A DNA stretch of 64,000 bases, taken from positions 39,594 to 103,593 of the forward strand of contig DASRDZ010000010.1 in assembly GCA_035652335.1 (NCBI GenBank), in the 5' to 3' direction. Each line of letters opens with the position of its first letter. Position 1 is the first letter of the stretch. The notes beneath the pieces were generated by a model that saw nothing but the letters and a program-made list of their open reading frames with translations, was not told where the DNA came from and ran no database searches. The position numbers were made by a program, and so were the translations under genes. Below are positions 7,635-46,194 of the stretch, in pieces. This DNA comes from Candidatus Dormiibacterota bacterium. Its GTDB lineage: Bacteria; Chloroflexota; Dormibacteria; Aeolococcales; Aeolococcaceae.

Positions 7635-7648
7635 CGCCGGCGGCCCGG

Positions 7649-14975: not shown

Positions 14976-16750
14976 TGCACAGCACGCGCCGAGCCCGTCA
15001 CGTCCGTCTGCTGGTGATGCTGGGGCTGGCGGGGATCCTGGCCGGCTGCTCGCGCACACCTCCGGGCGGGATCATCGCGGGCGGCGGTCTTGGTGGCGCA
15101 GCGGGGGCGGCGGACGCGCAGACGCAGACGAGCGCGGACTCCTCGGCGACGGCCGGCAGCGGTGCGGGTGCGGGCGCGGGCGCCGCGGGCGTCAACGGCG
15201 CAGTGGCCGGCGCGGCGGGCGCGGCCGGTGCCACGGGCGGCTCCGCGGTCGCGGCGGCGGCCGCCTCCGGCCCCACGGGTGAGAAGCCGATCGCGTCGTG
15301 GCCCGGTGTGACGCCGACCACCATCGACATCGCCATCGCCGCCAAGCTGCACAACTGCAGCGAGTCGAACAACCCGCAGGAGTCGAGCGCCGGCACCTGG
15401 ACGCAGAAGTACGCCGACCTGGTCTCCGCCTACGTCGACTACGTCAACAAGTACATCCCCCTCCCCGGCGGCCGGAAGCTGAAGCTGGTCGGCAACGACA
15501 ACACCTTCGGCATCCCGCTCGTCGACGACGGCGGCCAGTTCTGCCCGACGCAGCAGGCTGCCGCCGGCCGCTACGTGGTCAACTCGCTCAAGCCCTTCGC
15601 CGCCCTGTACTCGCAGCCGACGCCCTCGGGCCCGGTGTTCGACGAGACCGTGGCCAACGGGCACGTCCTCGACATCGGCCAGGGCTGGCCGACGGTGCAG
15701 TCGATGACCAGCCGCTGGCCCTACGCCATCGGGGTGGCGGTGGTCGGCGAGCCGCTCGACCAGCACATGGGCTACCTCGCCGACTACGTGCACAAGCGCC
15801 TGCAGAGCACGCAGTACACGCCGCCGGCCGGGCCGTCGCAGCCGCGCAGCTACGGCGCGATGATCTACGACGACCCGTTCTACAACGGGCTGGCCAGCGA
15901 GACGCAGCAGCTCTTCGGACAGTTCGGCATCAGCGTCAAGATCTACCGGATCAGCAGCAACACCGCCACCGCCGCGCAGCAGGCCAACCAGGTGGCCCTG
16001 CAGATGAAGCAGGACGGGGTGAACACGATGATCTGGGGAGTGGTCGGCCAGCCCGGCATCGTCATGGCCAACGCCTTCGACTCCGAGGCCTACTACCCGG
16101 ACAACCTGCAGGCCTACAGCGGCGTCGCCTTCTGGGACACCGACTACTCGCACACGCAGTGGTCCCGCGCCTTCGGCATCGGCACCCCGTCGATCATCGC
16201 CGAGCGCAACGACACCACCCACTACACCACCGCCTTCGAGGGTGGTGACGCCTACGACGAGGTGTGGGCCAAGTCGACCCAGTACGACGGCAACACCGCG
16301 CAGAACGGTGCCGACGGCTACGGCATCTGGAACAACCTGATGACCCTGACGGCGGGCCTCGAGCGCTCGCCGGTCAACTTCACACCGACCTCGTTCGCCG
16401 ACGGGCTGGACTCCTCGGCGACGCAGTACCGCTGCGTCGAGGAGCGCTTCTGGGGAACCGACCACCCGCAGCTCTTCCGGGTGGCCTGGTACAAGGACAA
16501 CCCCGCAGGCGCAGAGGGGTACACGACCCTCTACTGGGTCAACAAGCAGTCGTCGTTCGGCACCCCGGGCTACTACGAGTCGTACGACGGGTACTACACC
16601 TACTTCGGGCTCAACGACCTGCCCAACTCACCCTCCGACGACACGGCCAACCAGTCGGTGCCGCCCATCAAGCAGATCCCGCACATCGGCGTCGACCCCT
16701 TCAAGTCGTGCCCCAGCATCGGGCTGCAGGGTGGCCTCTACGAGCACTGA
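14975..16750 (+). CDS. Large lipoprotein, putative divergent periplasmic-binding-protein-like substrate-binding component (591 aa)
   Basis: ATG at 14975 overlaps the upstream TGA. Lipobox LAGC, then a roughly 90-aa Gly/Ala/Ser-rich linker (GAGAGAGAAG...), then a roughly 480-aa globular domain. Position and lipidation suggest it is the operon's binding protein; its length and sequence are atypical for LivK. Confidence 0.6.
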   Translation: MHSTRRARHVRLLVMLGLAGILAGCSRTPPGGIIAGGGLGGAAGAADAQTQTSADSSATAGSGAGAGAGAAGVNGAVAGAAGAAGATGGSAVAAAAASGPTGEKPIASWPGVTPTTIDIAIAAKLHNCSESNNPQESSAGTWTQKYADLVSAYVDYVNKYIPLPGGRKLKLVGNDNTFGIPLVDDGGQFCPTQQAAAGRYVVNSLKPFAALYSQPTPSGPVFDETVANGHVLDIGQGWPTVQSMTSRWPYAIGVAVVGEPLDQHMGYLADYVHKRLQSTQYTPPAGPSQPRSYGAMIYDDPFYNGLASETQQLFGQFGISVKIYRISSNTATAAQQANQVALQMKQDGVNTMIWGVVGQPGIVMANAFDSEAYYPDNLQAYSGVAFWDTDYSHTQWSRAFGIGTPSIIAERNDTTHYTTAFEGGDAYDEVWAKSTQYDGNTAQNGADGYGIWNNLMTLTAGLERSPVNFTPTSFADGLDSSATQYRCVEERFWGTDHPQLFRVAWYKDNPAGAEGYTTLYWVNKQSSFGTPGYYESYDGYYTYFGLNDLPNSPSDDTANQSVPPIKQIPHIGVDPFKSCPSIGLQGGLYEH

Positions 16751-18660: not shown

Positions 18661-19472
18661 CCCGCAGCGGCGTGGTGCACCGGCCCGACGGTGCGCGCAT
18701 CCCCTGGGAGCTGCTCGGCGACGGCGGCGGTCCGCGCATGGTGTTCGGCCACAGCCTGATGGGCCGCGGCCTCGGCGCGGAGCCGATCTACCGCCCGCTC
18801 CTCGACGGCGGCTGGGCGATGCTCACCATGGACCAGCGCGGGCACGGTGAGGCCTCGCCGCCACCGGGCGGCGACTTCGCCGTGGAGACGCTGGCCGGCG
18901 ACATGCTGGCGGTGCTCGACGAGGTGGGGTGGGACACCGCCTGGCTGGGCGGCGGTTCGATGGGCGCCGCCGTCGCCACCGCCGCCGCCGCGCTGACGCC
19001 GCATCGCGTCGAGGGCCTGGCCCTGCTGGCGCCCGCCGTCGGCGGCGCACCCAATCCTGCGCTGCAGCCGTTCGCCGCGCTCGGCGACGTCTTCGGGCGT
19101 GACGGCCTCGACGCCGGCATCGCCGCGTACTCCGCCATGGCACGCGAGAACGGCGCGGACGAGGCCCTCCTCGCCCTGCGCGCCGAGCAGTTCCGCATGC
19201 AGCCTGCGGAGAGCTGGGTCGCCGCGCTGCGCGGCATCGCGCGCTGGAACCTGGCGGAGGCGCTCGACGCGGTGCAGGAGCTCGACGTCCCAACCGCCGT
19301 CGTCGCCTGGACCGGCGACGACGTGCACCCGTTGAGCGTCGCCGAGGACCTGGTGCGGCGCCTGCGCGACGCGCGACTGCACGTGCTGCAGGAGTGGAAC
19401 GGCGACCCCGCGCACCTCTTCCGCGTCATGCTCGACATGACGCAGGCCGTCAGCGCCGCCCGCCCACGCTGA
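18657..19472 (+). CDS. Alpha/beta hydrolase fold protein
   Basis: GTG start overlaps the upstream TGA (GTGA). Nucleophile elbow GGGSMGA plus an HGE motif; 271 aa. Confidence 0.75.
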   Translation: MTRSGVVHRPDGARIPWELLGDGGGPRMVFGHSLMGRGLGAEPIYRPLLDGGWAMLTMDQRGHGEASPPPGGDFAVETLAGDMLAVLDEVGWDTAWLGGGSMGAAVATAAAALTPHRVEGLALLAPAVGGAPNPALQPFAALGDVFGRDGLDAGIAAYSAMARENGADEALLALRAEQFRMQPAESWVAALRGIARWNLAEALDAVQELDVPTAVVAWTGDDVHPLSVAEDLVRRLRDARLHVLQEWNGDPAHLFRVMLDMTQAVSAARPR

Positions 19473-20364
19473 GCAGTCGCGACGGCGGGGTGCGCCGCTC
19501 GCTGACGATGTCGAAGCGCTGCACCACGCGCATCGGCCGCGGCGGCTCGATCCACTGCGCCGTCGACCAGCCACGAGTCAGCTCGTCCCAGTCGGGGATG
19601 AGCGGGAAGTAGTGCGGCCTGAGGCCGAAGTCGACGACGGCGTCGTCGCTGCGCTGGTAGCGGAAGTCGACGGAGAGACGCAGGCGATCGGTCGTGTTGG
19701 GCACCGAGCCGTGCACGGTGAGGCTGTGGAAGAGCAGCACGTCGCCGGCCCGGAAGTCGGTGGCCACCCATCGCGGGTCGTCATGGCGCACGCGCACGCC
19801 GACGCCGCCGGTGCCGACCATGCCGTGCACGCGGCGGAAGCCGTGCCGGTGCGAGCCGCGCAGGACGCGCAGGCCGCCCATCGCGGCCGGCACGTCGCCG
19901 AGCGGGATCCACATGGTCAGAACGTCGACCGTGCCCTGGATCAGGGGGAAGTCCTGGTGCGGGGGGGTGATGAAGCCGGGATCCTGGGGCAGGCCGGCGC
20001 GGAGGATCTTCAGCGGGTAGACGAGCAGCTCGCCGTCGCCGTGCGCGTCGAGCACCGCCGACGCCAGCGCGCGCAGGTGGGGGTGGAAGGCGAAGCGATG
20101 GAAGCTCTCCATCGCTTGCACGGCGGCGTACATGTCGGGGAAGGTCTCGCCGCCCTCGCGGCAGGCGCGCGGACCGGGATGCGCCTCGGCGGGATCGCCG
20201 CCCGCTGCGATCCACCCCTTGTCCTGCAGCGCTGTGGCGATCTGGGCGCGGATGTCCAGAACGTCGGCGCGGGGGAGGAGGCCGCGCAGCAGCAGGTGGC
20301 TGTCGCGGTCGAGCCGCCGGCGCAGCGCCTCGCCCTCGCCGAGCAGCGCCGTGGAGTCGACCAT
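19450..20364 (-). CDS. PhyH-family Fe(II)/2OG dioxygenase, paralog 3
   Basis: Start trimmed to the ATG at 20364 (MVDSTALLGEG...), 24 nt downstream of the GH51 stop. Metal triad context PPHQDFPLIQG ... LTVHGSVPN. Confidence 0.8.
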   Translation of the reverse strand: MVDSTALLGEGEALRRRLDRDSHLLLRGLLPRADVLDIRAQIATALQDKGWIAAGGDPAEAHPGPRACREGGETFPDMYAAVQAMESFHRFAFHPHLRALASAVLDAHGDGELLVYPLKILRAGLPQDPGFITPPHQDFPLIQGTVDVLTMWIPLGDVPAAMGGLRVLRGSHRHGFRRVHGMVGTGGVGVRVRHDDPRWVATDFRAGDVLLFHSLTVHGSVPNTTDRLRLSVDFRYQRSDDAVVDFGLRPHYFPLIPDWDELTRGWSTAQWIEPPRPMRVVQRFDIVSERRTPPSRLLSVGGRR

Positions 20365-20387
20365 GGCCGGCGCGGCGGCGGTGCTCC

Positions 20388-21911
20388 TCATGCGCCCGCG
20401 TCGACGATGAGCGCGCCCGCGGTGTGCGGCGGCAGCGTGAGCGTGGCCGTGCCCGTGCCGTCGACCTCGACCGCGACGTCGCGGAAGTGGACGGCGTCGG
20501 GATGGTCCTCGTCGTTGCGGGTGAAGGGGCCCGCTCCGGCGAGGTGGCGCAGGCGCCCGCGCCGTCCCGGCGGCAGGCCGTGCACCTCGACGCCGAGCGG
20601 CTCGTCGAAGAGGCGGTTGGCGAGGAACACCGTGGTGCCCGAGGCGTCGGCGGTGGCGGCGGCGTCGAGCGCGGCGGCGCGGCGCTCACCGGTCATCGGC
20701 GGGTCCTGCACCTGCACGTCGCGGAAGGGCGGCGCGGTGATCTGCTCCGCCTCGACCTGCACCGGCACGGTGCCGGCGCGCGCAGCACGGCGGTAGAGCA
20801 TCGCCACCAGGTAGGCGCTGGTCACGAAGCTGCGCTCACCCCGCGTCTGGATGGGCGCCATGCAGTTGACCAGGTGGCTGATGTGGGCCATCTGCACCCG
20901 CGAGGCGCGCTCGATCATGCGGTTGAAGCAGCCGGCGAAGAACACCGACCAGCTGAGCGGGTGGTTGGTGGTGATGAGGTCGCGCCACTGGTACCACAGG
21001 TTCCACTCGTCGAGCGAGATGGGGATGGCGCGCGAGCCGCCGGCGCTGTCGAACTCCGCCATGTTGCGGTCGAGCATGATGCCGAGCTCGTCGCTGCCGG
21101 TGGCCACCTGCAGGTAGTCCTCGACGTCGTCGCGCAGGTCGCGGCTCAGCACCGGCCCCGGGAAGTAGAAGTGCACCGACAGCGCGTCGATGTGCTCGCC
21201 GGCGATCTCCACCAGGCCGCGGTTCCACTCGGCGCTGCCGCCCTCGGGTCCGAGCCCACCGCAGCCCACGGCGACGATGCGGATGCCCGGGTCGACCGCG
21301 CGCATCGCGGTGGAGAACTCGACGAAGCGGCGCGCGTACTCGCCGACCGAGCAGTGGCCGATCTCCCAGTCGCCGTACGTCTCGTTGCCGACGGCCCACC
21401 ACGTCACCGGACGCGGTGCCTCGCCGCGGTTGCAGTACCGCACCCACTCCGCGGCCTCCTCGGGCGTGCCGCTGCCGAAGTTGGCCACGAGCATCGGCTC
21501 GACGTCGGTGTCCAGGCAGTAGCGGAGGAACTCGTCGGTGCCCACCTGGTTGGTCTCCACCGGGCCGAACTCGCGGGCCCACTCCGGCGGGAAGGCGTCG
21601 CCGAAGCTGAAGTCGGTCCAGAACTGGCGGTCGTGGGTCGGCCGCTTCGACTTGGGCCCGACGCCGTCGCGCCAGTGGTACCAGTCGGAGAAGCAGCCGC
21701 CCGGGTAGCGGAACATGGTGGGCTGCAGCGCGCGCACGGCGTTGAGGACGTCGCTGCGCGGGGCGTCGCGCTCGGTCGACCAGATGCCGCCGTACATGCC
21801 GCGGCCGAAATGCTCGGTGAGCGCGCCGAACACGAATGGGGAGAGCGGCACGGGTCCTGCACCGGCCGCGCCCACCCGGATCGCGGCGCGCGCCGAGGTG
21901 CTCGCTGGCAT
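20388..21911 (-). CDS. GH51-family alpha-L-arabinofuranosidase-like glycoside hydrolase
   Basis: 507 aa. WAVGNETYGDW provides the catalytic acid/base context (NE). MFRYPGGCFSDWYHW is typical of the GH51 TIM barrel. Confidence 0.85.
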   Translation of the reverse strand: MPASTSARAAIRVGAAGAGPVPLSPFVFGALTEHFGRGMYGGIWSTERDAPRSDVLNAVRALQPTMFRYPGGCFSDWYHWRDGVGPKSKRPTHDRQFWTDFSFGDAFPPEWAREFGPVETNQVGTDEFLRYCLDTDVEPMLVANFGSGTPEEAAEWVRYCNRGEAPRPVTWWAVGNETYGDWEIGHCSVGEYARRFVEFSTAMRAVDPGIRIVAVGCGGLGPEGGSAEWNRGLVEIAGEHIDALSVHFYFPGPVLSRDLRDDVEDYLQVATGSDELGIMLDRNMAEFDSAGGSRAIPISLDEWNLWYQWRDLITTNHPLSWSVFFAGCFNRMIERASRVQMAHISHLVNCMAPIQTRGERSFVTSAYLVAMLYRRAARAGTVPVQVEAEQITAPPFRDVQVQDPPMTGERRAAALDAAATADASGTTVFLANRLFDEPLGVEVHGLPPGRRGRLRHLAGAGPFTRNDEDHPDAVHFRDVAVEVDGTGTATLTLPPHTAGALIVDAGA

Positions 21912-21951
21912 TCGTTCGAGATCCTAATAAACGTGGTAGAGTGTGTCAACC
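21912..21951. promoter_or_regulatory. AT-rich divergent promoter region between GH51 (-) and the esterase (+)
   Basis: GATCCTAATAAACGTGGTAGAGTGTGTCAACC, with a TAGAGT -10-like hexamer. Confidence 0.35.
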
Positions 21952-22869
21952 ATGGCCGAGACGCCCCCCACCTGGATCGAGGCCCTGCGCTCGCTCGACC
22001 CCGACGCCGAGGCCGCGCCCGGCTTCCGCGCCGCCGACTTCCTCGCCCTGCACGACCACCTCGACGCGCCGCCCGGCGCGGTGCGCATGGACGCGGTGGA
22101 GTACGCCCGGGTCGACGGGCAGCCGCTGGTGCTGGACGTCTACGCGCGCGCCGGCGCGTCGGAGCGGCGCCCCGCGGTGCTCTTCGTCCACGGCGGGGGA
22201 TGGGCGGGCGGCTGCCGCACCTTCCACTCGCGGCACTGCGCAGCGCTGGCCGAGCTGGGCTACGTCGCCGCCACCGCGGACTACCGCCTGGTGCCGCAGG
22301 TGCGCTGGCCCGAGCCGCTGCTCGACGCCAAGCGGGCGCTGCGCTGGCTGCGCGCCAACGCCGCGCGCCTCGGCGCCGACCCCGACCGCATCGTCATCGC
22401 GGGCGGCTCGGCGGGTGGCCATCTGGCTGCGATGGTCGCATTGACCCCGGGGCGCTTCGAGCCCGCCGGCGCGCCGGACGTGCCGAGCACCGTCTCGGGC
22501 GCGGTGATCTGGTATCCGTGCGCCGACATGGAGTCGCTGCTGGCGCATCCCGACGGTGGTCCCATGGTGGAGGCGTTCCTCGGCTCGCGCGACGCCGAGA
22601 CCCTGCGCGAGGCGTCGCCGCTGTGGCAGGTCGCCGCCGGCGCGCCGCCGTTCCTCACCATGACCGGCTCCGCCGACCAGCTGACCACCGAAGCCGACAT
22701 CCGCCGCCTGCACGCGGCCTTCGACGCCTGCGGCGTGCGCAACCGGCTGCGCGTCTTCGACGGCGCCGACCACGCGTTCGACCTGGCCCCGGGCGGCTGG
22801 GAGCCCTGCTTCGCGGAGATGTGCGTCTTCCTCGACGAGGTGGTGGGCGCGGCCGTTCCCGCCGGGTAG
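21952..22869 (+). CDS. Alpha/beta-hydrolase fold-3 esterase/lipase (HGGG, GGSAGG)
   Basis: ATG at 21952. Oxyanion-hole motif VLFVHGGGW and nucleophile IVIAGGSAGGHLAA. Confidence 0.8.
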   Translation: MAETPPTWIEALRSLDPDAEAAPGFRAADFLALHDHLDAPPGAVRMDAVEYARVDGQPLVLDVYARAGASERRPAVLFVHGGGWAGGCRTFHSRHCAALAELGYVAATADYRLVPQVRWPEPLLDAKRALRWLRANAARLGADPDRIVIAGGSAGGHLAAMVALTPGRFEPAGAPDVPSTVSGAVIWYPCADMESLLAHPDGGPMVEAFLGSRDAETLREASPLWQVAAGAPPFLTMTGSADQLTTEADIRRLHAAFDACGVRNRLRVFDGADHAFDLAPGGWEPCFAEMCVFLDEVVGAAVPAG

Positions 22870-22881
22870 GCGCTTCCGCGC

Positions 22882-23889
22882 GTGGCCACGACGGAGGTGC
22901 TGCTCGACGAGGGCACGGTGCTCGCGCACCTGCGCTCGCGCGGTGTGCTTGGTGATGACGAGGCGGCGGTTGCGCAGGTGCTCGGTGGCGGCGTGTCCAA
23001 CACCGTCATCCTCGTCGAGGCCGGCCCGCGCCGCGTCGTCGTCAAGCAGGCGCTGCCGCGGCTGCGCGTCGCGCGGGAGTGGCTCGCCGACCCGTCGCGC
23101 ACGGTGACCGAGGGCCGTGCCCTGCGGGTGGCCGCGACGCTGCAGGAGGATGCGGTGCCCGCGGTGGTCGACCTCGACGAGGAGCGCAACGTGCTGGTGG
23201 TGGCCGCGGCGCCGGCCGGCACCGGCGACTGGAAGCAGCGGCTGCTGCACGGCGACGTGTCGGAGGACGACGTGCGCGTCGGCGAGTCCGTCGGAGCGCT
23301 GCTGGGGCGATTGCACGCGCGCACCGCGACCGACGCGTCGCTGCGCGCCGACTTCGACGCCTGGGCGGCCTTCGAGCAGCTGCGGGTGGCCCCCTACTTC
23401 CGGTCGATGGTGGCCGATACTCCGGAGCTGGGCGACATCGTGCTGCCCCACGTGGAGGCGATGGCGCGGCGGCGCGTCTGCCTCGTGCACGGTGACGTCT
23501 CGCCGAAGAACGTCCTCGCCGGCGAGGGCCTGCCCTGGCTGATCGACTTCGAGGTCGCCTGCTGGGGCGATCCCGCCTTCGACGTCGCCTTCCTGCTCAC
23601 CCACCTCGCCATGAAGGCGGTGCACCGCCCCGCGCAGGCGCCGGCGCTCGCGCGAGTCGCGAGGGCGTTCCTGGCGGCGTACCGCGCCGAGGCGGGCGCG
23701 CTGCTCGACGAGGCGCACGCCGCCGCGCTGCTCGGCTGCCTGCTCATGGCGCGCGTCGACGGCAGGTCGCCGGCGGAGTACCTCGACGGCGCGTCGCGCC
23801 AGGTGGTGCGCGGGCTCGGCCTGCGCGTGGCCACGGCTCCGCCGCGTACCCTCGACGCCGCAGTGCAGGAGGCCATGCAGTCCAGATGA
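22882..23889 (+). CDS. APH-fold small-molecule kinase (MtnK/aminoglycoside-phosphotransferase-like)
   Basis: GTG start. N-terminal LGGGVSNTVILVEAG and the catalytic region VHGDVSPKNVL...IDFEVACWGDP are APH-fold motifs. Its stop overlaps the ATG of the enolase gene (ATGA). Confidence 0.7.
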   Translation: MATTEVLLDEGTVLAHLRSRGVLGDDEAAVAQVLGGGVSNTVILVEAGPRRVVVKQALPRLRVAREWLADPSRTVTEGRALRVAATLQEDAVPAVVDLDEERNVLVVAAAPAGTGDWKQRLLHGDVSEDDVRVGESVGALLGRLHARTATDASLRADFDAWAAFEQLRVAPYFRSMVADTPELGDIVLPHVEAMARRRVCLVHGDVSPKNVLAGEGLPWLIDFEVACWGDPAFDVAFLLTHLAMKAVHRPAQAPALARVARAFLAAYRAEAGALLDEAHAAALLGCLLMARVDGRSPAEYLDGASRQVVRGLGLRVATAPPRTLDAAVQEAMQSR

Positions 23890-25199
23890 GCGACGCCGCC
23901 ACGCGCATCGCGCGCGTCGACGCCTGGGAGGCGCTCGACTCGCGCGGGCGTCCCACCGTCGCCTGCCGGCTGCTGCTGCAGGGCGGTGCCGAGGGGGAGG
24001 CGCTGGCGCCGAGCGGGGCGTCGACCGGCCGGCACGAGGCCGTCGAGCTGCGGGACGGCGGCGAGCGCTACGGCGGGCGCGGCGTGCGCACGGCGGTGGG
24101 CAATGTCCACGCCCTGATCGGCCCGGCGCTGGCGGGCATGGACGCGGCCGACCAGGCGTCGGTGGACGCGCGGATGCGAGAGCTCGACGGGACGCCGCAG
24201 CTCGCCCGTCTCGGCGCCAACGCGGTGCTCGCCGTGTCGCTGGCCTGCGCGCGCGCCGCCGCCGCCGCGACGGGCATCCCGCCGTGGCGCGCGCTCGCCG
24301 GGGACGGCGCCGGCGAGCCGCTGCTGCCCATGCCCATGGTCAACATCCTGAGCGGCGGCGCGCATGCCGGCCGCATGGTCGACGTCCAGGACTACCTCGT
24401 CATCCCGCTCGGCGCGGAGTCGTTCGCGCAGGCGATGGAGTGGGTGTGGCGCGTGCGCGAGGCGGCGGCCGCCGTTGTGGCCGATCGTGGCGGCAACCCG
24501 CATCTCGTCGCCGACGAGGGCGGCCTGGCCATGCAGCTGCACGACAACAGCGAGGGGCTCCGCCTGCTCTGCGAGGCGATCGAGCGCAGCGGGCTGCGGC
24601 CGTTGGACGACGTCGGCATCGCCCTCGACGTCGCCGCCACCCAGCTCTGGGCGGACGGCGCCTACACGCTCGCGGCCGAGCACCGCTCCCTCGACACGGC
24701 GGAGATGGTCGGCATGGTGGCCGGGTGGTCTCGCGAGTTCCCCCTGGTGTCGATCGAGGACCCGCTCGCCGAGGACGACTGGGAGGGCTGGCGGGCGGCC
24801 ACGGCGCTGCTCGGCGAGCGCCAGCTCATCGGCGACGACCTCTTCGCCACCAACGTGGCGCGCCTCCGCCGCGGGATCGGCGACCGCGCCGGCAATGCCG
24901 TTCTGGTCAAGGTCAACCAGAACGGCACGCTCAGCGGCACCGCCGAGGTGATGCGCCTCGCCCGCGACGCCGGCTACGCCACGGTGGTGTCGGCGCGCAG
25001 CGGTGAGACCGAGGACGCCTTCATCGCCGACCTCGCCGTCGCCTGGAGCGCCGGACAGATCAAGGTGGGCTCGCTGACACGTTCCGAGCGCACCGCCAAG
25101 TGGAACCGCCTGCTCGCCATCGAGGCGCAGGCCGGATCGAAGGCGACCTTCGCCGGGCGCGGCTGCCTCGCCGGCGGGGTCGCGGGAGGGATCACCTGA
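23886..25199 (+). CDS. Enolase (phosphopyruvate hydratase) family protein, probable paralog inside a catabolic operon
   Basis: SGASTGRHEAVELRDGG matches the canonical enolase metal/substrate motif; 437 aa. The stop shares a nucleotide with the ATG of the FAH gene (TGATG). Confidence 0.85.
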   Translation: MSDAATRIARVDAWEALDSRGRPTVACRLLLQGGAEGEALAPSGASTGRHEAVELRDGGERYGGRGVRTAVGNVHALIGPALAGMDAADQASVDARMRELDGTPQLARLGANAVLAVSLACARAAAAATGIPPWRALAGDGAGEPLLPMPMVNILSGGAHAGRMVDVQDYLVIPLGAESFAQAMEWVWRVREAAAAVVADRGGNPHLVADEGGLAMQLHDNSEGLRLLCEAIERSGLRPLDDVGIALDVAATQLWADGAYTLAAEHRSLDTAEMVGMVAGWSREFPLVSIEDPLAEDDWEGWRAATALLGERQLIGDDLFATNVARLRRGIGDRAGNAVLVKVNQNGTLSGTAEVMRLARDAGYATVVSARSGETEDAFIADLAVAWSAGQIKVGSLTRSERTAKWNRLLAIEAQAGSKATFAGRGCLAGGVAGGIT

Positions 25200-26125
25200 T
25201 GCGCCTCAGCACCATCCGCACCGACCGCGGGCCGCGCCTCGCCCTGCTCGACGGCGGCCTGGCCGTCGACCTCGCCGGCGCGCTCGACGCCACCGGGGAG
25301 CGCATCGCCGCGCTCGACGCGCCGGCCGGCGCCGGCGACCCGGCGAACGTCCTCGCACTGCTGCGCGCCTGGGACGACGCCCTTCCGGCACTGGAGCGCG
25401 CCGGTGCGCAGGTCGGTGCGCTGGTGCGCAGCGGCAGCCTGCAGCCGAGCGACGCGCAGCTCGGACCCTGCGTCCCGCGACCGGGGAAGATCGTCTGCGT
25501 CGGCCTCAACTACGCCGACCACGCGCGCGAGACCGGACAGCCGGTGCCGAAGAGCCCCGTCCTCTTCAGCAAGTGGGCCTCCTGCGTCGTCGGCCCCACC
25601 GACGACGTGGTCCGCCCGCTCGGCTGCACCGACCTCGACTATGAAGCGGAGCTGGGCGTCGTCATCGGCCGCACCGCGCGACACGTCCCCGTCGAGTCGG
25701 CGCTCGGCGTGGTGGCCGGCTACTGCTGCGCCAACGACGTCTCCGCCCGCGGCGCGCAGCTCGGCGACGGGCAGTGGGTGCGCGGCAAGTCCTTCGACAC
25801 CTTCTGTCCCCTGGGCCCGCTGGTCAGCGCCGGCGAGGTTCCCGACCCGCAGGCCCTCGGCATCGGCTGCCGCGTCGACGGCGAGGTGCGCCAGGACTCC
25901 AGCACCGCCCAGATGGTCTTCGGCGTCGCCGAGCTGATCGCCTTCTGCTCGCGCAGCTTCACCCTCGAACCGGGCGACGTCATCCTCACCGGCACCCCGC
26001 CCGGCGTCGCCCTCGGCCACGACCCCGCCCCCTGGCTCCAGCCCGGCCAGCTCTGCGAGGTCTGGATCGACGGCCTCGGTACGCTGGGCAACCGCATCGT
26101 CGACGAGTCCGCCGTCCGCGCCTGA
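25199..26125 (+). CDS. Fumarylacetoacetate hydrolase (FAH) family protein
   Basis: Start trimmed to the ATG at 25199 (MRLSTIRTDRG...), coupled to the enolase stop. The FAH core is recognisable (KIVCVGLNYADHARE ... DYEAELGVVIG ... GDVILTGTPPGV). Confidence 0.8.
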   Translation: MRLSTIRTDRGPRLALLDGGLAVDLAGALDATGERIAALDAPAGAGDPANVLALLRAWDDALPALERAGAQVGALVRSGSLQPSDAQLGPCVPRPGKIVCVGLNYADHARETGQPVPKSPVLFSKWASCVVGPTDDVVRPLGCTDLDYEAELGVVIGRTARHVPVESALGVVAGYCCANDVSARGAQLGDGQWVRGKSFDTFCPLGPLVSAGEVPDPQALGIGCRVDGEVRQDSSTAQMVFGVAELIAFCSRSFTLEPGDVILTGTPPGVALGHDPAPWLQPGQLCEVWIDGLGTLGNRIVDESAVRA

Positions 26126-26161: not shown

Positions 26162-27211
26162 CTACGGCTCGACGATGATCTTGAGGTGCCGCATGGGCTC
26201 GTCGATGAGCGGGGTGAACCCGTCCTCGACGACGCGGCGCAGCGGGATGCGGTCGGTGATCAGCGGGTCGAGCTGGACGGCGCCCGCGTCGATCATGCGC
26301 ACCGCCTCGACGAAGTCCTCGGCGAAGGTGTGCGACAGCGACGCCACCACCTCGCGCTCGCCCATCAGCATGTCGAGCATCGAGAGCGGGACGACGTCGT
26401 CGTAGACGCCGAGCAGGACGCTGCGCCCGCCGCGGCGCGCCAGCGAGATCGCCGCCATGGCGGCGCGGCTGTTGCCCGCGGCCTCGACGGTCACGTCGAG
26501 CCCGACGCCGCCGGTCAGGTCCAGCGCAGCCTGCGACGCCTCCTCGGGAGTCACCGCCGCCGCGGCGCCGAGCTGCGACGCCAGCGCGCGCCGCGACTCC
26601 ACGCGATCGACCACCACCACCTGTGACGCGCCTCGTCGCAGCGCGACCTGCAGCAGCAACAGCCCAACGGTGCCGCCGCCGACGATGCCGACCGTCGACC
26701 CGGCGAGGACGCCGCCGCGACGCGCTGCGCGCACCGCGACGGAGAGCGGCTCCGCCAGCGCGCCGTGCGCCGCGGGAACGGAGTCGGAGAGCGGCGCGCA
26801 CATCGAGGCCGGCGCCAGCATCAGCTCGGCGAGCGCGCCGTCGCCCATCAGCCCCAGGGAGGCGAGCTGGGTGCAGAGCTGCGTGTCGCCGCGACGGCAC
26901 CACCAGCACTCGCCGCAGTGCAGGTTGGTCTCGACAGCGACGCGGGTCCCGGGCCGGAGCGCGACGCCGTCGCCGACCGCCTCGACCGTCGCCGAGGGCT
27001 CGTGGCCCAGGGTGAGGGGGGCGGAGCGGTGGGAGAGGGGATGGGGAGCGGTGGGGACGAGGACGGGCCCGAGCTGGTACTCCTCGACGTCGGTGCCGCA
27101 GATGCCGCAGGCGTCGACGCGCAGCCGCACCCAGCCGGGCGGGGGAGCGCCGGGCTCGGCGATCTCCTCCACGCGGACGTCGCGCCGCGCGTGCCACCGT
27201 GCCGCCAGCAT
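26162..27211 (-). CDS. Zn-dependent alcohol dehydrogenase (MDR family)
   Basis: Catalytic zinc site GICGTDVEEY..GHEPS, structural zinc site CGECWWCRRGDTQLC, and a Rossmann motif GIVGGGTVG. Confidence 0.85.
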   Translation of the reverse strand: MLAARWHARRDVRVEEIAEPGAPPPGWVRLRVDACGICGTDVEEYQLGPVLVPTAPHPLSHRSAPLTLGHEPSATVEAVGDGVALRPGTRVAVETNLHCGECWWCRRGDTQLCTQLASLGLMGDGALAELMLAPASMCAPLSDSVPAAHGALAEPLSVAVRAARRGGVLAGSTVGIVGGGTVGLLLLQVALRRGASQVVVVDRVESRRALASQLGAAAAVTPEEASQAALDLTGGVGLDVTVEAAGNSRAAMAAISLARRGGRSVLLGVYDDVVPLSMLDMLMGEREVVASLSHTFAEDFVEAVRMIDAGAVQLDPLITDRIPLRRVVEDGFTPLIDEPMRHLKIIVEP

Positions 27212-27272: not shown

Positions 27273-28961
27273 TCACTCCACGTCGCGGTCGACCAGCTCC
27301 TCCATGAGCTGCAGGGCCACCCCGGCGGTCCAGGTATAGCGCCCGGTGCCCAGGCCGCAGCCGTCCTCGTGGGAGAGGTGCTCGAAGGCGTCGCCGCCCG
27401 CAGCGTACGCCGTCGCCACCGCGTCGCAGAAGGCGCGCGCGATCGCCGTGGCCAGCTCGACCTCGCCGTAGCGCATCAGCGCCTGGCAGGTGTGCAGCTG
27501 GTGGGGGCCCCAGATCGTGCCCGACCAGAACTCCGTCGGCGCGCCCGGCGCGGGATGCTTGCCGTCGAGCGGATGGTTGCTCTTGATGCCGTACGGCGAG
27601 AGCAGCCCCTTGTGCTCCACGCGGAACCAGCGCAGCTCCACCTCCTCGACGTCACACCCGGGTGCGTCGAGACGCAGCTCGCGGATCCCCGGGATCCAGT
27701 GTGGCCCGTCGCCGGGGAGGTGCGCCATGGTGTCGTGGCCCGCTCGTCCCTCGACGGCTCCCGGTTGCACCGCGTCCAGCGCGAGGAACGGATGCACCTC
27801 GCCGTTCCTGTCGGTCATGGTGAGTCGCAGCGACGCGCCGGCCTGGGCGCGCGCGACGCGCACCGACGCCTCCATCCGCGGGAACGCCGCGGCCGCCGGT
27901 CCGCGATCCGCGCCGAAGCGCGCGACGAAGCCACTCGGCGCCAGCTCCACTCCGCCCGCCGCCGCGCCCGCGCCGCGCGAGGGATGCAATCCGTCGGTGA
28001 CGACCTGGTAGCCGTTGTACAGCTGCGAGCCCAGCCGCACCGTCATCGCGCCGTCCCACTGCGGGTAGCCGCGCCGCCGGCCGCGAAGCGTCTCCACGAT
28101 GGCCCGCGCCTGCTCCTCGCTGGCGAAGCCGGCCCACATCGGCATCAGCATCGCCGGCGTGTGCCGGTACACGCGAGGCTGCGCGGCGCAGAGATCGCGG
28201 CGAACGACGGGGAAGAATCCACCGACGTCGCCGTCCCACATCGCCTCGTTCATCCGCGCGGCGAGAGCGTCGCGCCGCGCCAGCCACGCGGGCGTCGAAC
28301 CGGCGTCGACACGCGACGCCATGCGCACCAGGGCGTCGAGCTCCATCCAGAGACAGGAGTTGAGGAACACGTCGGCGATGGGCTCGTGCACCAGTCCGTC
28401 GTCGCTGACCGGGGTTGGCTCTCCCATCACCAGGTCGCGCTCCGGCGAGTAGTCGTGCCCGGACTCGTAGGCGACGAAGGTCGTCGTCGAGCCGCCGTAT
28501 TCGGACAGGCCGTCGCCGTCGTGGTCACGCCGCGGCGACTGCCACCAGTCGACGTGCATCGCCAGCTTGGGGTATACGCGAGCCAGGAAGGCGTCGTCGG
28601 GCTCGCAGGCGTCGACCTCCATGGCCAGCCAGGCGAGCATGGGCACCTGGGACCCGTCCTGCCCCGCCATGTGCCCGTCGCGATGCATGTGGCGCGCCAC
28701 CATTCCGCGGTCGGGGCCGTCCTGCTCCTGGAAGTCGAGCATGTTCTCGACGAAGCCCCTGGCCAGGTCGGGACGCCGGCCGACGGTGGCGACGCCACGC
28801 GCGGAGTAGGGGATGTCCCAGGTGAACTGCAGCCCGAAGCGCTCGTAGAAGGGCGCGACGCGCAGCGCCGTCCGCTTGTACACGCCGCCCGCGGGCACGA
28901 TGTTGTCGCCGAGGCTCAGCCGGTACAGCGCGCGCCGCAGCGACGGCGGGTAGCGATCCAT
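27273..28961 (-). CDS. (alpha/alpha)6-barrel glycoside hydrolase, GH63-like (mannosyl/glucosyl-glycerate hydrolase-type or trehalase-like)
   Basis: 562 aa. WDGDVGGFFP and HxWxxWxxG-like six-hairpin motifs. It starts immediately after the AKR stop, suggesting an operon. Confidence 0.65.
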   Translation of the reverse strand: MDRYPPSLRRALYRLSLGDNIVPAGGVYKRTALRVAPFYERFGLQFTWDIPYSARGVATVGRRPDLARGFVENMLDFQEQDGPDRGMVARHMHRDGHMAGQDGSQVPMLAWLAMEVDACEPDDAFLARVYPKLAMHVDWWQSPRRDHDGDGLSEYGGSTTTFVAYESGHDYSPERDLVMGEPTPVSDDGLVHEPIADVFLNSCLWMELDALVRMASRVDAGSTPAWLARRDALAARMNEAMWDGDVGGFFPVVRRDLCAAQPRVYRHTPAMLMPMWAGFASEEQARAIVETLRGRRRGYPQWDGAMTVRLGSQLYNGYQVVTDGLHPSRGAGAAAGGVELAPSGFVARFGADRGPAAAAFPRMEASVRVARAQAGASLRLTMTDRNGEVHPFLALDAVQPGAVEGRAGHDTMAHLPGDGPHWIPGIRELRLDAPGCDVEEVELRWFRVEHKGLLSPYGIKSNHPLDGKHPAPGAPTEFWSGTIWGPHQLHTCQALMRYGEVELATAIARAFCDAVATAYAAGGDAFEHLSHEDGCGLGTGRYTWTAGVALQLMEELVDRDVE

Positions 28962-29852
28962 CTACAGCAGCGCGGAGATCAGCGGGCGGGTTGCGGTGTC
29001 GCGGATGGCATCCTCGATCTGCTCGGCGCTGAGCGGTGTGAAGGCGCGCACCGCTTCGAGGACGGTGGGCATGATGCGCAGGTCGCCGACGGTCGGGATG
29101 CCCGTCACCGGCAGCGACAGCGTGAAGTTCACCGCGTCCTGGATGGCGTTGCGCTGGTCGAGCGGCTCGTACCAGGTGTTGTAGCGCCGCGCGGAGGGAT
29201 CGTTCCACGGCCCCTTGGCGATGGCCTTGATGGCCATGATCCCGAGGTCGCGCTCCGCGGCGGTGGCGAAGAGCTTCTCCAGCTCGGTGCGGTACTCGGG
29301 CACGCCCATCATCGAGGCGTTCACGGGAAGCATGATGGTGTCGAGGTCGAGCGCGTCCAGGGCGCGGTTGGCGACGCGCGCCACGTGCTCGAGATGCCCG
29401 GTCAGCCCGATCCAGCGCGTCAGGCCCTGCTCGCGCGCCTCCAGCAGCGCCTCGGCCGCGCCGCCGGGTGCGAGGATGGCGTCGAGGTCGTCGTCGTTGC
29501 AGACGGCGTGGAACTGGTGCAGGTCGACGCGGTCGACGTGCAGCGTCCGCAGCGAGTTCTCCAGCTCGCGCCAGAAGCCGTCGCGGGTGCGCTCGCCACT
29601 CTTGCAGCCGAGGAACACGCGATCGCGGAACGACGGAAGGGTGCGGCCGAGCTGCTCCTGGGCCATGCCGTACTGCGGCGCGACGTCGACGTGGTTGACG
29701 CCGCCGTCGAGCGCGAAGCGGATCGCCGCGTCACCCGAGTCGGGATCGTCGACCTGCCAGAAGGCGGCCATGCCCAGGATGGCCATGCTCGACATGTGGC
29801 CGGTGCGGCCGAGGCGGCGCCGGCCCAGCTCCGCCTGGGCAGACTCGGGCAT
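28962..29852 (-). CDS. Aldo/keto reductase
   Basis: AKR fold motifs (GVNHVDVAPQYG, LGCKSGE, HVDRVDLHQFHAV). Confidence 0.85.
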   Translation of the reverse strand: MPESAQAELGRRRLGRTGHMSSMAILGMAAFWQVDDPDSGDAAIRFALDGGVNHVDVAPQYGMAQEQLGRTLPSFRDRVFLGCKSGERTRDGFWRELENSLRTLHVDRVDLHQFHAVCNDDDLDAILAPGGAAEALLEAREQGLTRWIGLTGHLEHVARVANRALDALDLDTIMLPVNASMMGVPEYRTELEKLFATAAERDLGIMAIKAIAKGPWNDPSARRYNTWYEPLDQRNAIQDAVNFTLSLPVTGIPTVGDLRIMPTVLEAVRAFTPLSAEQIEDAIRDTATRPLISALL

Positions 29853-29903: not shown

Positions 29904-31160
29904 TCAGCCGAGCAGGGCCTGGTCGACGACCCGGAAGGACGGCGTGGCCTGCCCCATGGCCAGCTGGATGGCTCCGAGGAGCGGTGCGTCGGGACCGATC
30001 GCGGTGGTCTCCACCGCCACCGCCTCGGCCGGCAGGCAGTGTCGCGCGGCCGAGGCCTGGGCCGCCTCGACGTAGGCCTCGCTGGCCACCAGCGGACCGC
30101 CGAGGACGACGATCGAGGGCGAGAGCACGTTGACCAGGTAGGCGATGCCGCGTCCCAGCTGGTCGCCCGCCTCGCGCACAGCGCGCAATGCGACGGCGTC
30201 GCCGTCACGGGCCAGCTCGACGACCATGTCGGCGGTCAGCCGCCGGCGGCCGCGCTGCAGCCTGGAGGACTCTCCTCCGCTCTTGAGCAGCTCACCGGCA
30301 TGGCGCACGATCGCCTGGCTGCTGGCCACCGTCTCCAGGCAGCCGCGGTTGCCGCAGCTGCAGCGCACGCCGTTCTCCACCACCGGCGAGTGGCCGACCT
30401 CGCCGGCATAGCCGGTGGCGCCGCTGAAGAGCGTGCCGTCGAGCACGACGCCTGCGCCGATGCCGCTGCCCGCGTACACCCAGACCAGGACGCGATGCTC
30501 CTCGCCGCGCAGCCGCGACTCCGCGATCGCCGCCGCGTGCGTCGAGTTGGCCACCACCGTGGGTGCACCGACCGCCGCCTGCACGCGCTGGCGGATGGGC
30601 ACGTCGTGCCAGTCGAGGTTGGGCGCGATGGCGCAGACGCCGCTGCTCGGGTCGACCAGCCCCGGCACCGCCACGCCGGCGCCGCGCACCTGCTCGCGCT
30701 TGACGCCGCTGCGGCTGATGGCCTGGCGCAGCGCCTTCTGCGCGTCACGGACCGACTGGTCGACATCGCCGTGCACGGCGGGCGTGGTCGCGGTGCTGAC
30801 CAGGTTGCCCAGCCCGTCGGTGACCGCGACGTGGGTGGTGTTGACGCCGAACTGGATGCCGGCGAAGGCGACGGCGCGCTCGTTGTAGACGAGCAGCGAG
30901 GGCGGCCGTCCGGTGCGATGCGTGGCCGGGTCGGCCCCCGTCTCGCGGACGAGGCCGGCGCCGACCAGGTCCTCGACGATGGAGGAGACCGTCGGCTTGC
31001 TCAGCCGGGTGCGCCGGGCCAGCTCGACGCGGGAGACCGGCTGCCCCTCGCGGAGGATGTCGAGCACGATGCTGCGATTGACCTCGCGCATCATGCCGTG
31101 GGCGACCTTGGTGCCCGTCGCCCGCCTCGAGGCCGTGCGGTCGCTGCTCACGGGCCGCAT
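29904..31160 (-). CDS. ROK-family transcriptional regulator (NagC/XylR-like)
   Basis: N-terminal HTH (RSIVLDILREGQPVSRVELARRTRLSKPTVSSIVEDL), the ROK zinc motif (CSCGNRGCLET) and the GIGAG sugar-kinase fold. Confidence 0.85.
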   Translation of the reverse strand: MRPVSSDRTASRRATGTKVAHGMMREVNRSIVLDILREGQPVSRVELARRTRLSKPTVSSIVEDLVGAGLVRETGADPATHRTGRPPSLLVYNERAVAFAGIQFGVNTTHVAVTDGLGNLVSTATTPAVHGDVDQSVRDAQKALRQAISRSGVKREQVRGAGVAVPGLVDPSSGVCAIAPNLDWHDVPIRQRVQAAVGAPTVVANSTHAAAIAESRLRGEEHRVLVWVYAGSGIGAGVVLDGTLFSGATGYAGEVGHSPVVENGVRCSCGNRGCLETVASSQAIVRHAGELLKSGGESSRLQRGRRRLTADMVVELARDGDAVALRAVREAGDQLGRGIAYLVNVLSPSIVVLGGPLVASEAYVEAAQASAARHCLPAEAVAVETTAIGPDAPLLGAIQLAMGQATPSFRVVDQALLG

Positions 31161-31227: not shown

Positions 31228-32532
31228 ATGCGCATCACCGGGATCTCCACCGCCGTGCTCGAGGCCAACTTCGACTGGACCCTGATCAGGGTTGACACCG
31301 ACGCCGGTGTGAGCGGGCTCGGCGAGGCCTTCTTCGCCCCGGGCCTGACCGCCATGGTCCGCGAGTTCGCCACCATCCTGGAGGGCGAGAACCCGCTCGA
31401 CGTCGACCGCCTCTACCAGAAGATGCGCTGGGCGGGCTCGGCGGGCGCCATCGCGGGCTACGTGTACAACGCCATCAGCGGCATCGAGTCGGCGCTCTGG
31501 GACCTCAAGGGCCGAGCCCTGGGCGTGCCCATCTGGCAGCTCCTCGGCGGGCGCTTCCGCGACGCGGTGCGCATCTACGCCGACTGCCACGGCGGCAGCG
31601 CTCTGGAGTCGCTGGGACCGCTGCTGCAGCGCCGCCGCCCGTCGTGGGTGGAGGACGAGCACGCGCCCGCCACCGGCGGCTACTTCGACACCCTGGCCGG
31701 TGACGAGGAGTGCTTCACCCCCGAGGCCTACGCGCAGACCGCGCGCGACGCGGTGGCGATGGGCTTCGACGCCATCAAGTTCGACCTCGACGTCCCGGTG
31801 ATGGGCACGCGCCCGCCCGACGCGTACGCGCGCAACCTCTCGCCCGCGCAGCTCGACCACATGGTGCGACTCGTGGCGGCGGCATGCGAGGCGGCGGGGC
31901 CACATGTCGAGGTCGCCTTCGACTGCCACTGGCGCTTCACCGTGCAGGACGCCGTGCGACTCGCGCGCCGCATCGAGGGGTATCCCGTCGCCTGGCTGGA
32001 GGATCCCACGCCGCCGGAGAACGCCGCCACGCTGGCGCGCGTCACCGCCAAGACCTCGACGCCGATCGGCTGCGGCGAGAACTGGTTCGGCCGCGAGGGC
32101 TTCCGCGAGCCGCTGGCGCTCGGCGCCATCGACGTCGCCCTGCCCGACCTGCAGAAGTGCGGCGGTCTCGGTGAGGGCAGGCGCATCGCCGACCTCGCCG
32201 ACATGCACGACATCCCCCTCTCGCCGCACAACATCTCCAGCCCCATCGGGACCATGGCCTCGGCGCACCTCTGCGCCGCCATCCCCAACTTCCGCTCGCT
32301 GGAGTGGCACGCCATGAGCGTGCCGTTCTTCGACTCGCTCGTGCTCGGCGGCACCAGGATCATCCAGGACGGGCACGTCGTGCTCCCGGAGTCTCCCGGT
32401 CTCGGCATCGAGCTCGACTACGACGAGGCGCGGCGCTGGGCCAAGGCCGGCGAGCCGTTCTTCGACGAGGCGCCGACCGTGCTCGCGGGTGAGCGCGCCG
32501 CGACGGCTGCGGAGCCGGTGCCGGCGAGCTAG
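31228..32532 (+). CDS. Mandelate racemase/muconate lactonizing enzyme family (enolase superfamily) sugar-acid dehydratase
   Basis: 434 aa. MR-family capping domain and barrel (KFDLD ... WLEDP ... CGE). A TAGAAT -10 hexamer sits only 9 nt upstream of the ATG, suggesting a leaderless or short-leader transcript. Confidence 0.85.
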   Translation: MRITGISTAVLEANFDWTLIRVDTDAGVSGLGEAFFAPGLTAMVREFATILEGENPLDVDRLYQKMRWAGSAGAIAGYVYNAISGIESALWDLKGRALGVPIWQLLGGRFRDAVRIYADCHGGSALESLGPLLQRRRPSWVEDEHAPATGGYFDTLAGDEECFTPEAYAQTARDAVAMGFDAIKFDLDVPVMGTRPPDAYARNLSPAQLDHMVRLVAAACEAAGPHVEVAFDCHWRFTVQDAVRLARRIEGYPVAWLEDPTPPENAATLARVTAKTSTPIGCGENWFGREGFREPLALGAIDVALPDLQKCGGLGEGRRIADLADMHDIPLSPHNISSPIGTMASAHLCAAIPNFRSLEWHAMSVPFFDSLVLGGTRIIQDGHVVLPESPGLGIELDYDEARRWAKAGEPFFDEAPTVLAGERAATAAEPVPAS

Positions 32533-35009: not shown

Positions 35010-35106
35010 TGTGCTCTCCTCATCGCGGCATTAGTATGCATAATTGCCGAACCCGGCCGAGGGCCCACCATGGTGCCGCGGCGGCCGGGACGGAAGGAGC
35101 CAGCCG
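35010..35106. promoter_or_regulatory. Divergent SDR / MR2 intergenic region with AT-rich box
   Basis: CATTAGTATGCATAATTGCCGAACC contains the palindromic core ATGCAT and a TGcATAAT extended -10-like element. Both flanking genes have strong RBSs. Confidence 0.4.
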
Positions 35107-46170: not shown

Positions 46171-46194
46171 CCCGCGACGGGGGTGACACACACA

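Follow-up and report, generated by a model that had tools for sequence, protein, structure and literature searches.

A kinase–enolase gene pair from a Candidatus Dormiibacterota genome: a candidate module for converting glycerate-like acids to phosphoenolpyruvate

In the non-phosphorylative Entner–Doudoroff, glucarate/galactarate and serine-cycle pathways, glyceraldehyde, tartronate semialdehyde or hydroxypyruvate is converted to glycerate, which then passes through 2-phosphoglycerate to phosphoenolpyruvate (PEP). Elsewhere in sugar-acid catabolism, L-2,4-diketo-3-deoxyrhamnonate hydrolase splits a diketo acid into pyruvate and a 2-hydroxy acid. As for enolases, Streptomyces coelicolor has two of them, the second (SCO7638) being 57% identical to SCO3096 (PMC12727718). 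Published work on Streptomyces merely mentions an uncharacterised second enolase (PMC12727718, PMC7244524), and our literature search for a kinase–enolase pair, for glycerate kinases of the aminoglycoside phosphotransferase (APH) type and for divergent enolases returned nothing relevant. Here, we analyse a stretch of 64 000 nucleotides (hereafter the window) from the genome of a Candidatus Dormiibacterota bacterium (assembly GCA_035652335.1, contig DASRDZ010000010.1, positions 39 594 to 103 593), in which overlapping genes encode an APH-fold kinase, an enolase paralog and an FAH-family enzyme.

We report the gene structure of this locus, the families of its products, the active-site signature of its enolase, the two-way linkage between kinase and enolase, and the families of genes that surround the pair. 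From these, we infer the substrate, the phosphorylated position and the product of what may be a self-contained two-gene catabolic module, made up of a glycerate (or glycerate-like) 2-kinase and a dedicated PEP-forming enolase, a proposal that we regard as evenly poised.

The coupled operon and its three products

The GC content of the window is approximately 73%, and codon-position GC (GC3, at third positions, of 0.92–0.95) picked out three consecutive genes on the forward strand:

22882–23889, forward strand: APH-fold, MtnK-like small-molecule kinase of 335 residues (PF01636), proposed glycerate-like 2-hydroxy-acid 2-kinase.
23886–25199, forward strand: enolase-subfamily paralog of 437 residues (PF03952 and PF00113, TIGR01060), proposed to dehydrate the kinase product to PEP.
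25199–26125, forward strand: FAH-family enzyme of 308 residues (PF01557), proposed 2,4-diketo-3-deoxy-aldonate C–C hydrolase giving pyruvate and a 2-hydroxy acid.

The kinase stop codon (TGA, 23887–23889) overlaps the enolase start codon (ATG, 23886) as ATGA, the junction reading cagATGAgc, and the enolase stop codon (TGA, 25197–25199) overlaps the FAH start codon (ATG, 25199) as TGATG, within ccTGATGcg. The FAH gene starts at 25199, although the longest open reading frame (ORF) in that frame begins at 25100. Both overlaps, and with them a coupled three-gene operon, had been described in a first-pass annotation made by a model from this DNA, and are confirmed here.

The coupling of the first two genes extends far beyond the window. 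Indeed, a scan of one genome per species recovered at least 595 kinase loci in many bacterial phyla and in haloarchaea, and the pair itself is found in hundreds of species of bacteria and archaea, belonging to the Actinomycetota, Chloroflexota, Acidobacteriota, Planctomycetota, Bacteroidota, Vibrio, Alphaproteobacteria and haloarchaea. An enolase bearing the signature described below lies immediately 3' of the kinase in 72 of the 87 loci examined, across many phyla; the 4-nucleotide start/stop overlap is preserved in 31 of 66 loci, and some plasmids carry the two genes in reverse order but still overlapping. The linkage also holds when the search starts from the enolase: a DNA pattern for SARSGETED, run on metagenome contigs, retrieved 120 paralog enolases, of which 60 had at least 700 nucleotides of upstream room, and the kinase stood alongside 53 of these 60. 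Given these three counts (72/87, 31/66 and 53/60), the arrangement is not owing to chance.

The enolase itself is readily assigned. It matches PF03952 (E = 6e-46) and PF00113 (E = 1e-85), scores 489.6 bits against TIGR01060 (cutoff 300) and is approximately 50–52% identical to three solved canonical enolases, with which it shares the aligned motifs SGASTG, ALDVAA, SIEDP, GDDL, KVNQ, DEGG, IKVG and RSGETED; the longer SGASTGRHEA motif cited in the first-pass annotation is indeed present. Aligned to the solved enolases, it retains the metal ligands (yeast Asp246, Glu295, Asp320 and the Ser39 loop), the base Lys345, the acid Glu211, Lys396 and the phosphate binders Arg374 and Ser375. Because the binders of carboxylate, 2-phosphate and metal are kept together with Lys345, Glu211 and Lys396, the expected substrate is a 2-phospho carboxylate with a leaving group at C3.

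The same annotation had called this enolase canonical, which turned out to be incorrect. The canonical enolases used for comparison agree at two positions at which this protein departs from them: yeast Glu168 is replaced by Asp (VQDYLV) and His373 by Ala (SARSGETED). In the 121 closest homologs, which are the best database matches and span 59–98% identity, the residue at position 168 is invariably Asp (121/121) and that at position 373 is Ala in 120 and Gly in one; the combination of QD and SARSGET also occurs in the most distant kinase-linked copies, from Vibrio, Flammeovirga, Maribacter, Planctomycetota, haloarchaea and Azospirillum. About a dozen further fixed differences emerged from the comparison of the 121 homologs with three canonical enolases of three phyla: R14W, E26A, K106L, N156S, M171L, an R185E/E189R swap, G209A, F214L, E253Q, L281W, T394V and Y406W. 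Three of these changes (R14W, E26A and Y406W) are remote from the catalytic motifs, at positions that may match the dimer-interface salt bridges of yeast enolase; if they do, they hint at altered oligomerisation or at the avoidance of heterodimers with the housekeeping enzyme.

The first-pass annotation had also advised aligning the protein to housekeeping eno, and the result points to a diverged paralog, the identity to the Mycobacterium tuberculosis enolase being approximately 51% even in Nocardia and Gordonia. More broadly, the Gordonia, Nocardia and Blastococcus members share no more than 50–53% identity with that enzyme and are therefore paralogs, not housekeeping orthologs. In Halomarina, Rhodococcus opacus, Methylobacterium nodulans, Rhizobium and Paracoccus, further copies are carried by megaplasmids, and source annotations label the paralog phosphopyruvate hydratase. 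The enolase belongs to a separate subfamily, which in the genomes of these relatives is a second and often plasmid-borne copy.

The kinase, which is 100% identical to a protein listed by NCBI for a Candidatus Dormibacteraeota MAG, is recognised by PF01636 (E = 7e-21; 75.5 bits versus a gathering threshold of 23.2), and its AlphaFold2 model (pLDDT 93.5) finds its best fold match in MtnK, with a TM score of 0.77–0.79 at 18–19% identity, followed by PsiK and then by peptide and antibiotic kinases, among them LxmK, TvaE, corramycin kinase and AmiN. The earlier designation as an MtnK/APH-type kinase thus stands as far as the APH domain and the MtnK-like fold are concerned, but the protein fails the MtnK model itself (TIGR01767; 56 bits versus a cutoff of 275), the match covering the N-terminal 100 residues only. 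JGI annotations frequently name it 5-methylthioribose kinase, and methionine-salvage genes (mtnA etc.) were found neither in the window nor in the annotated related loci. Likewise, no homology to glycerate kinases of class I (GlxK/GarK), class II (MOFRL) or class III (GLYK) was detected, Pfam and NCBIfam giving APH-type domains alone; if it is a glycerate kinase, it would constitute a fourth, non-homologous class. In the kinase alignment (A1), K55 (the ATP lysine), H203-G204-D205, N210 and D222-x-E224 (motifs HGD-SPKN and DFE) are invariant, as are many Arg and Lys residues, which fits an anionic substrate.

The third enzyme (PF01557, E = 2e-74, 250 bits) has 2,4-didehydro-3-deoxy-L-rhamnonate hydrolase (LRA6, NF053535) as its best NCBIfam model, with 224.5 bits for a model cutoff of 500, and L-2,4-diketo-3-deoxyrhamnonate hydrolase (PDB 8gsr, 195 bits) as its best solved relative. 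This fits the initial suggestion that the FAH-family enzyme acts on a keto acid; by analogy with that relative, its product from a non-deoxy hexonate would be glycerate.

Neighbours of the pair and the surrounding island

To describe the genomic context, all ORFs within 7 kb of the pair were clustered and the immediate neighbours were profiled with Pfam, the ORFs of the Azospirillum brasilense locus being annotated by hand. The following families recur:

Short-chain dehydrogenase (SDR): 19 loci, the commonest neighbour family.
FAH: at least 14 loci.
D-2-hydroxyacid dehydrogenase: 13 loci, mostly directly 5' and on the same strand.
MR/MLE dehydratase: 12 loci.
Sulfatase: nine loci.
Aldehyde dehydrogenase: eight loci.
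Zn-dependent dehydrogenase: seven loci.
SGL lactonase: four loci.

Regulators of the LacI, GntR and ROK families and transporters for sugars or organic acids are recurrent too. A universal third partner gene was considered and rejected, as the immediate neighbours are heterogeneous and no family exceeds approximately 10–25% of loci. For the D-2-hydroxyacid dehydrogenase partner, the best solved relatives are glycerate dehydrogenase/glyoxylate reductases.

Individual loci illustrate the range of these contexts. In Flammeovirga, the pair belongs to an isolated operon of aldehyde dehydrogenase, kinase and enolase, and in the related locus L003 a DHDPS-type aldolase lies 5' and an aldehyde dehydrogenase 3' of the pair. 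A single operon of Vibrio hannami encodes a sugar ABC transporter, an isomerase, a PfkB kinase, a class II aldolase, an aldehyde dehydrogenase, the kinase and the enolase, a layout that leads from a ketose-1-phosphate to dihydroxyacetone phosphate and a free C3 aldehyde, and from the latter to the acid, the phospho-acid and the enol phosphate. On plasmids, the pair is accompanied in Halomarina by several MR/MLE dehydratases, DHDPS and RraA aldolases and a CtBP-type dehydrogenase; in Paracoccus seriniphilus by a LacI regulator, followed by kinase, enolase, FAH, two SDR genes and a sugar ABC transporter, the core order being that of the window; and in Rhodococcus opacus by the succession FAH, 2-hydroxyacid dehydrogenase, enolase, kinase and second FAH. 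In Rhizobium sp. N324, a plasmid clusters PEP carboxylase, 2-hydroxyacid dehydrogenase and kinase, with the signature enolase 4 kb off. Cultured strains with a kinase ortholog include P. seriniphilus DSM 14827 (JHW44_RS18710), R. opacus PD630 (K2Z90_RS39755), Halomarina sp. BND7 (NKI68_RS18800), V. hannami KACC 19277 and Flammeovirga sp. SJP92. The common denominator of these variable neighbours is free glyceraldehyde, glycerate or hydroxypyruvate, and the conversion of glycerate to PEP is the one metabolic step common to the routes by aldolase and aldehyde dehydrogenase, by diketo-hydrolase, by hydroxypyruvate reduction and by PEP carboxylation.

Other neighbours were noted as well. On plasmid p1 of A. 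brasilense Sp7 (L088), a PhyH gene (7247–8155) lies two genes 5' of the pair, with a GntR gene between, and the locus also holds a PEP-mutase/isocitrate-lyase-family gene, an iron-containing alcohol dehydrogenase and a TRAP transporter. A conserved protein of approximately 350–400 residues with no NCBIfam match recurs by the pair (L059, 7220–8440; L072, 12277–13335; six loci in cluster 19), one cluster of it matching DUF4432, of mutarotase-like fold. In L005, a locus with the kinase alone, the kinase gene adjoins a 2-hydroxyacid dehydrogenase, two AP_endonuc_2 (hydroxypyruvate-isomerase-like) genes, GFO_IDH_MocA and DUF993.

In the window, the operon is set in a glycan and sugar-acid catabolic island, which comprises glycoside hydrolases (GH) of families GH51, GH63-like, GH31, GH38-like and GH130, a sulfatase and two MR/MLE dehydratases, together with an RraA-like aldolase, an SDR, a Zn-dependent dehydrogenase, an aldo-keto reductase and a ROK regulator. 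The genes closest to the operon are as follows, L001 and L009 denoting related loci, the former being the closest (kinase 67–68% identical):

20388–21911, reverse strand: GH51-like alpha-L-arabinofuranosidase (Pfam/NCBIfam); a 56% identical ortholog adjoins the pair in L009.
21943–22869, forward strand: alpha/beta-hydrolase esterase (BD-FAE/Abhydrolase_3, Pfam), 12 nucleotides 5' of the kinase gene and possibly on the same transcript.
26162–27211, reverse strand: Zn-dependent medium-chain dehydrogenase (ADH_N and ADH_zinc_N), convergent with the operon; orthologs lie near the pair in L001 (73% identical) and L009 (59%).
27273–28961, reverse strand: GH63/MGH1-like glycoside hydrolase (PF22422, E = 2e-28).
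28962–29852, reverse strand: aldo/keto reductase (Pfam).
29904–31160, reverse strand: ROK-family transcriptional regulator with N-terminal helix–turn–helix (Pfam), which likely controls the island; ROK orthologs adjoin the pair in L001 and L009.
31228–32532, forward strand: MR/MLE (enolase-superfamily) acid-sugar dehydratase, galactonate-dehydratase-like (Pfam/NCBIfam).
32529–33299, reverse strand: RraA-like aldolase, candidate 2-keto-3-deoxy-acid aldolase; L001 and the Halomarina plasmid also have RraA-like genes close to the pair.
34266–35009, reverse strand: short-chain dehydrogenase, candidate sugar dehydrogenase or 2-keto-3-deoxy-acid 4-dehydrogenase.
35044–36300, forward strand: second MR/MLE acid-sugar dehydratase.

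Further along, a GH31 gene (reverse strand), a gene for a GH38-like protein of 1152 residues with an N-terminal domain resembling a carbohydrate-binding module, and a sulfatase gene are grouped at 37980–45014. L001 likewise has two GH31 genes and a sulfatase gene by the pair, which suggests that the window island and L001 share a glycan substrate, possibly a sulfated one. In an ORF of 823 residues (48977–51448), a glycosyltransferase domain of the GT1 family is fused, unusually, to a C-terminal GH130 domain of the mannoside phosphorylase-like type, and a gene for a PhyH-type Fe/2-oxoglutarate dioxygenase is located in the island at 19450–20391 (reverse strand). Long ORFs with coding-type GC3 at 3178–7356 (reverse strand, 1392 residues), 14412–16750 (forward strand, 187 and 591 residues) and 46183–47940 (forward strand, 585 residues) gave no Pfam match at E ≤ 1e-5. 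The sole Rfam matches in the window are two tRNA genes, at 53514–53600 (reverse strand, 87 nucleotides) and 54760–54851 (forward strand, 92 nucleotides), both with lengths of the long-variable-arm type.

Proposed pathway and competing explanations

In the pathway that we propose, the MtnK-like APH-fold kinase would transfer phosphate from ATP to the 2-hydroxyl of a free C3 acid with hydroxyls at positions 2 and 3 (most likely glycerate), and the coupled enolase paralog would eliminate the 3-hydroxyl to form PEP, by means of a two-Mg2+ site with Lys345 as base and Glu211 as acid. The FAH-family enzyme would cleave a 2,4-diketo-3-deoxy-hexonate into pyruvate and glycerate; the diketo acid would in turn be a product of the MR/MLE dehydratases and dehydrogenases nearby, starting from sugars freed by the surrounding glycosidases. 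An entire hexose skeleton could thereby be converted to pyruvate and PEP with no phosphorylated sugar intermediate. The core of this scheme, a kinase forming a 2-phospho acid that the enolase turns into an enol phosphate, had been put forward in the first-pass annotation and is consistent with the comparative evidence, but the source of glycerate given there is not: the GH63-like hydrolase, which was to release it, has a tblastn match in none of the 87 related loci, and its link to the pair is not conserved.

Several points weigh against the proposed pathway. The main doubt is that a housekeeping enolase would suffice for ordinary D-2-phosphoglycerate, and we know of no glycerate 2-kinase that is paired with a private enolase. 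In yeast enolase, Glu168 and His373 flank the C3 hydroxyl and Glu211; mutation of Glu168 is strongly deleterious, and substitutions of His373 are mild to severe. The conserved changes of the paralog are predicted to adjoin the position of the leaving group and to make the pocket larger and less polar. The strict replacement of these two residues, and likewise N156S, G209A, F214L, E253Q and T394V, which adjoin the active site or catalytic motifs, argue for some difference in reaction or substrate. On the side of the kinase, the nearest structural relatives phosphorylate the anomeric hydroxyl of a sugar, a phenol or a peptide Ser/Thr, and not hydroxy acids. Approximately one-tenth of the kinase loci are without a nearby enolase, and small kinase-only clades have none within 10 kb (L005, L025, L027, L028, L032, L035, L056, L061 and L081). 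Finally, neither an aldehyde dehydrogenase nor a D-2-hydroxyacid dehydrogenase is among the annotated genes of the window.

These points can be accommodated if the same architecture serves a substrate other than D-glycerate and D-2-phosphoglycerate, for which a private enolase with an altered C3 pocket would be obligatory, an explanation that we consider possible while leaning away from it. Candidates include an acid with a bulkier C3 (tetronate or 2,3-dihydroxybutyrate 2-phosphate), one with a different leaving group (for example phosphosulfolactate, giving PEP and sulfite) and the L-enantiomer. The invariance of the Glu168Asp/His373Ala signature across bacteria and archaea, the position of subfamily-specific changes next to catalytic motifs and a near-obligate two-way linkage, such as would be predicted were the kinase product unusable by the housekeeping enolase, all speak for such a substrate. 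Moreover, LRA6-like FAH hydrolases and fuconate-type sets of MR/MLE and SDR enzymes act on L-configured sugar acids, and the V. hannami layout parallels clusters of the sulfo-Embden–Meyerhof–Parnas type up to the aldehyde dehydrogenase. However, the neighbour contexts converge on no single alternative acid, none having been found to fit all of them, and the D-specific 2-hydroxyacid dehydrogenase and PEP carboxylase partners favour D-glycerate and PEP. Simple mirror-image binding of L-2-phosphoglycerate would not match the set of residues that changed, and a sulfonate or phosphate would fit poorly in a negatively charged pocket. Against a sulfonate leaving group, it can be added that the general acid Glu211, which such a leaving group would presumably not need, is retained, that the GH31 enzyme and the aldehyde dehydrogenase of L001 resemble alpha-xylosidase and alpha-ketoglutarate-semialdehyde dehydrogenase and not sulfoquinovose enzymes (these two resemblances point to a Weimberg pathway in L001), and that neither a sulfoquinovosidase nor a sulfite exporter is encoded at the Vibrio locus. 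Desulfonation of sulfoquinovose or sulfolactate, an idea prompted by the GH31, TauE and sulfatase genes of L001 and by the Vibrio layout, has accordingly lost its initial support and persists as a minor branch. Only tentatively would we see the Glu168Asp/His373Ala enolases as the first functionally divergent family in an otherwise single-function enolase subgroup, with a private MtnK-like kinase handling a 2-hydroxy acid that housekeeping enzymes cannot.

Explanations that dispense with a joint metabolic role fare worse. The kinase could be a phosphotransferase for antibiotics or xenobiotics, or a protein kinase with the enolase as its target for regulation or modification, the coupling then reflecting regulation or moonlighting; the APH fold does include many resistance kinases and peptide Ser/Thr kinases, and LxmK, TvaE, corramycin kinase and AmiN were matched. 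Yet these matches are weaker than those to MtnK and PsiK, the active site of the enolase is intact except for two specific changes, and the pair sits in catabolic operons for sugars and organic acids, with transporters and LacI, GntR or ROK regulators, rather than in biosynthetic or resistance contexts, so that we hold this explanation to be very unlikely. Still harder to credit is that the enolase is the housekeeping glycolytic eno and the kinase an ordinary methylthioribose kinase adjoining it by accident, the scenario that the first-pass annotation had set against its own proposal. The score above the NCBIfam eno cutoff and the annotations as phosphopyruvate hydratase and 5-methylthioribose kinase would accord with it, but the extra copies that Halomarina, Rhodococcus, Methylobacterium, Rhizobium and Paracoccus carry on megaplasmids, the low identity of the Nocardia and Gordonia copies (approx. 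51%) to the M. tuberculosis enzyme and the Asp/Ala signature throughout the subfamily do not; neither do the 56 bits of the kinase for an MtnK cutoff of 275 and the lack of methionine-salvage genes near any locus examined. We therefore reject it on model scores, signature, plasmid-borne second copies and the missing salvage genes. A role in the supply of 2-phospholactate for coenzyme F420 was also considered and rejected, as the pair is present in Vibrio and Bacteroidota, and phospholactate has no leaving group at C3; to our knowledge, Vibrio and Bacteroidota do not make F420.

Significance and comparison with known systems

If the kinase is a glycerate or glycerate-like 2-kinase, it would complete the non-phosphorylative pathways for sugars and sugar acids by supplying their final step, in hundreds of species from soil, marine and hypersaline habitats, under a gene that is now mis-annotated as aminoglycoside phosphotransferase, MtnK or Bud32. 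The paralog subfamily is separate and ancient, with two residues of the catalytic pocket replaced, and databases count it as glycolytic enolase, which affects metabolic reconstructions and studies of ‘second enolases’. The pair also offers a testable case, either of the evolution of a pathway-dedicated isozyme or of new chemistry in an enzyme family that is among the most thoroughly studied. Were the function of the paralog truly divergent, the pair would represent an unrecognised and widespread means of turning acids derived from sugars into PEP or an analogue of it; if R14W and E26A sit at the dimer interface, they could instead reflect insulation from the housekeeping enolase.

Compared with enolase (EC 4.2.1.11), the paralog has the same two-domain architecture, approximately 50% identity, the catalytic and metal-binding residues and a score above the curated cutoff; it differs by Asp168, by a residue other than His at position 373, by its fixed changes and by being a second copy that is usually coupled to the kinase and often plasmid-borne. 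Similarly, the kinase resembles MtnK (TIGR01767; PDB 2olc and 2pyw) in giving its best fold match and in its N-terminal G-loop, ‘KQALP..R’ segment and APH-type catalytic loop, whereas it is approximately 60 residues shorter, is 18–19% identical, has an enolase partner and is without methionine-salvage neighbours.

The proposed reaction and its position in the pathway are those of the glycerate 2-kinases (GarK/GlxK of class I and MOFRL of class II), whose pathways also share the neighbouring aldolase, aldehyde dehydrogenase, hydroxypyruvate reductase and PEP carboxylase; the window kinase, however, has no relationship of sequence or fold to either GarK/GlxK or MOFRL. As regards the non-phosphorylative route for L-rhamnose and L-fucose, its hydrolase LRA6 (8gsr) is the best relative of the FAH-family enzyme, and a set of MR/MLE, SDR and FAH genes likewise surrounds the pair. 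The two differ in that the window enzyme reaches 224.5 of the 500 bits set for LRA6, and in that the coupling of kinase and enolase implies a dehydratable glycerate and not lactate.

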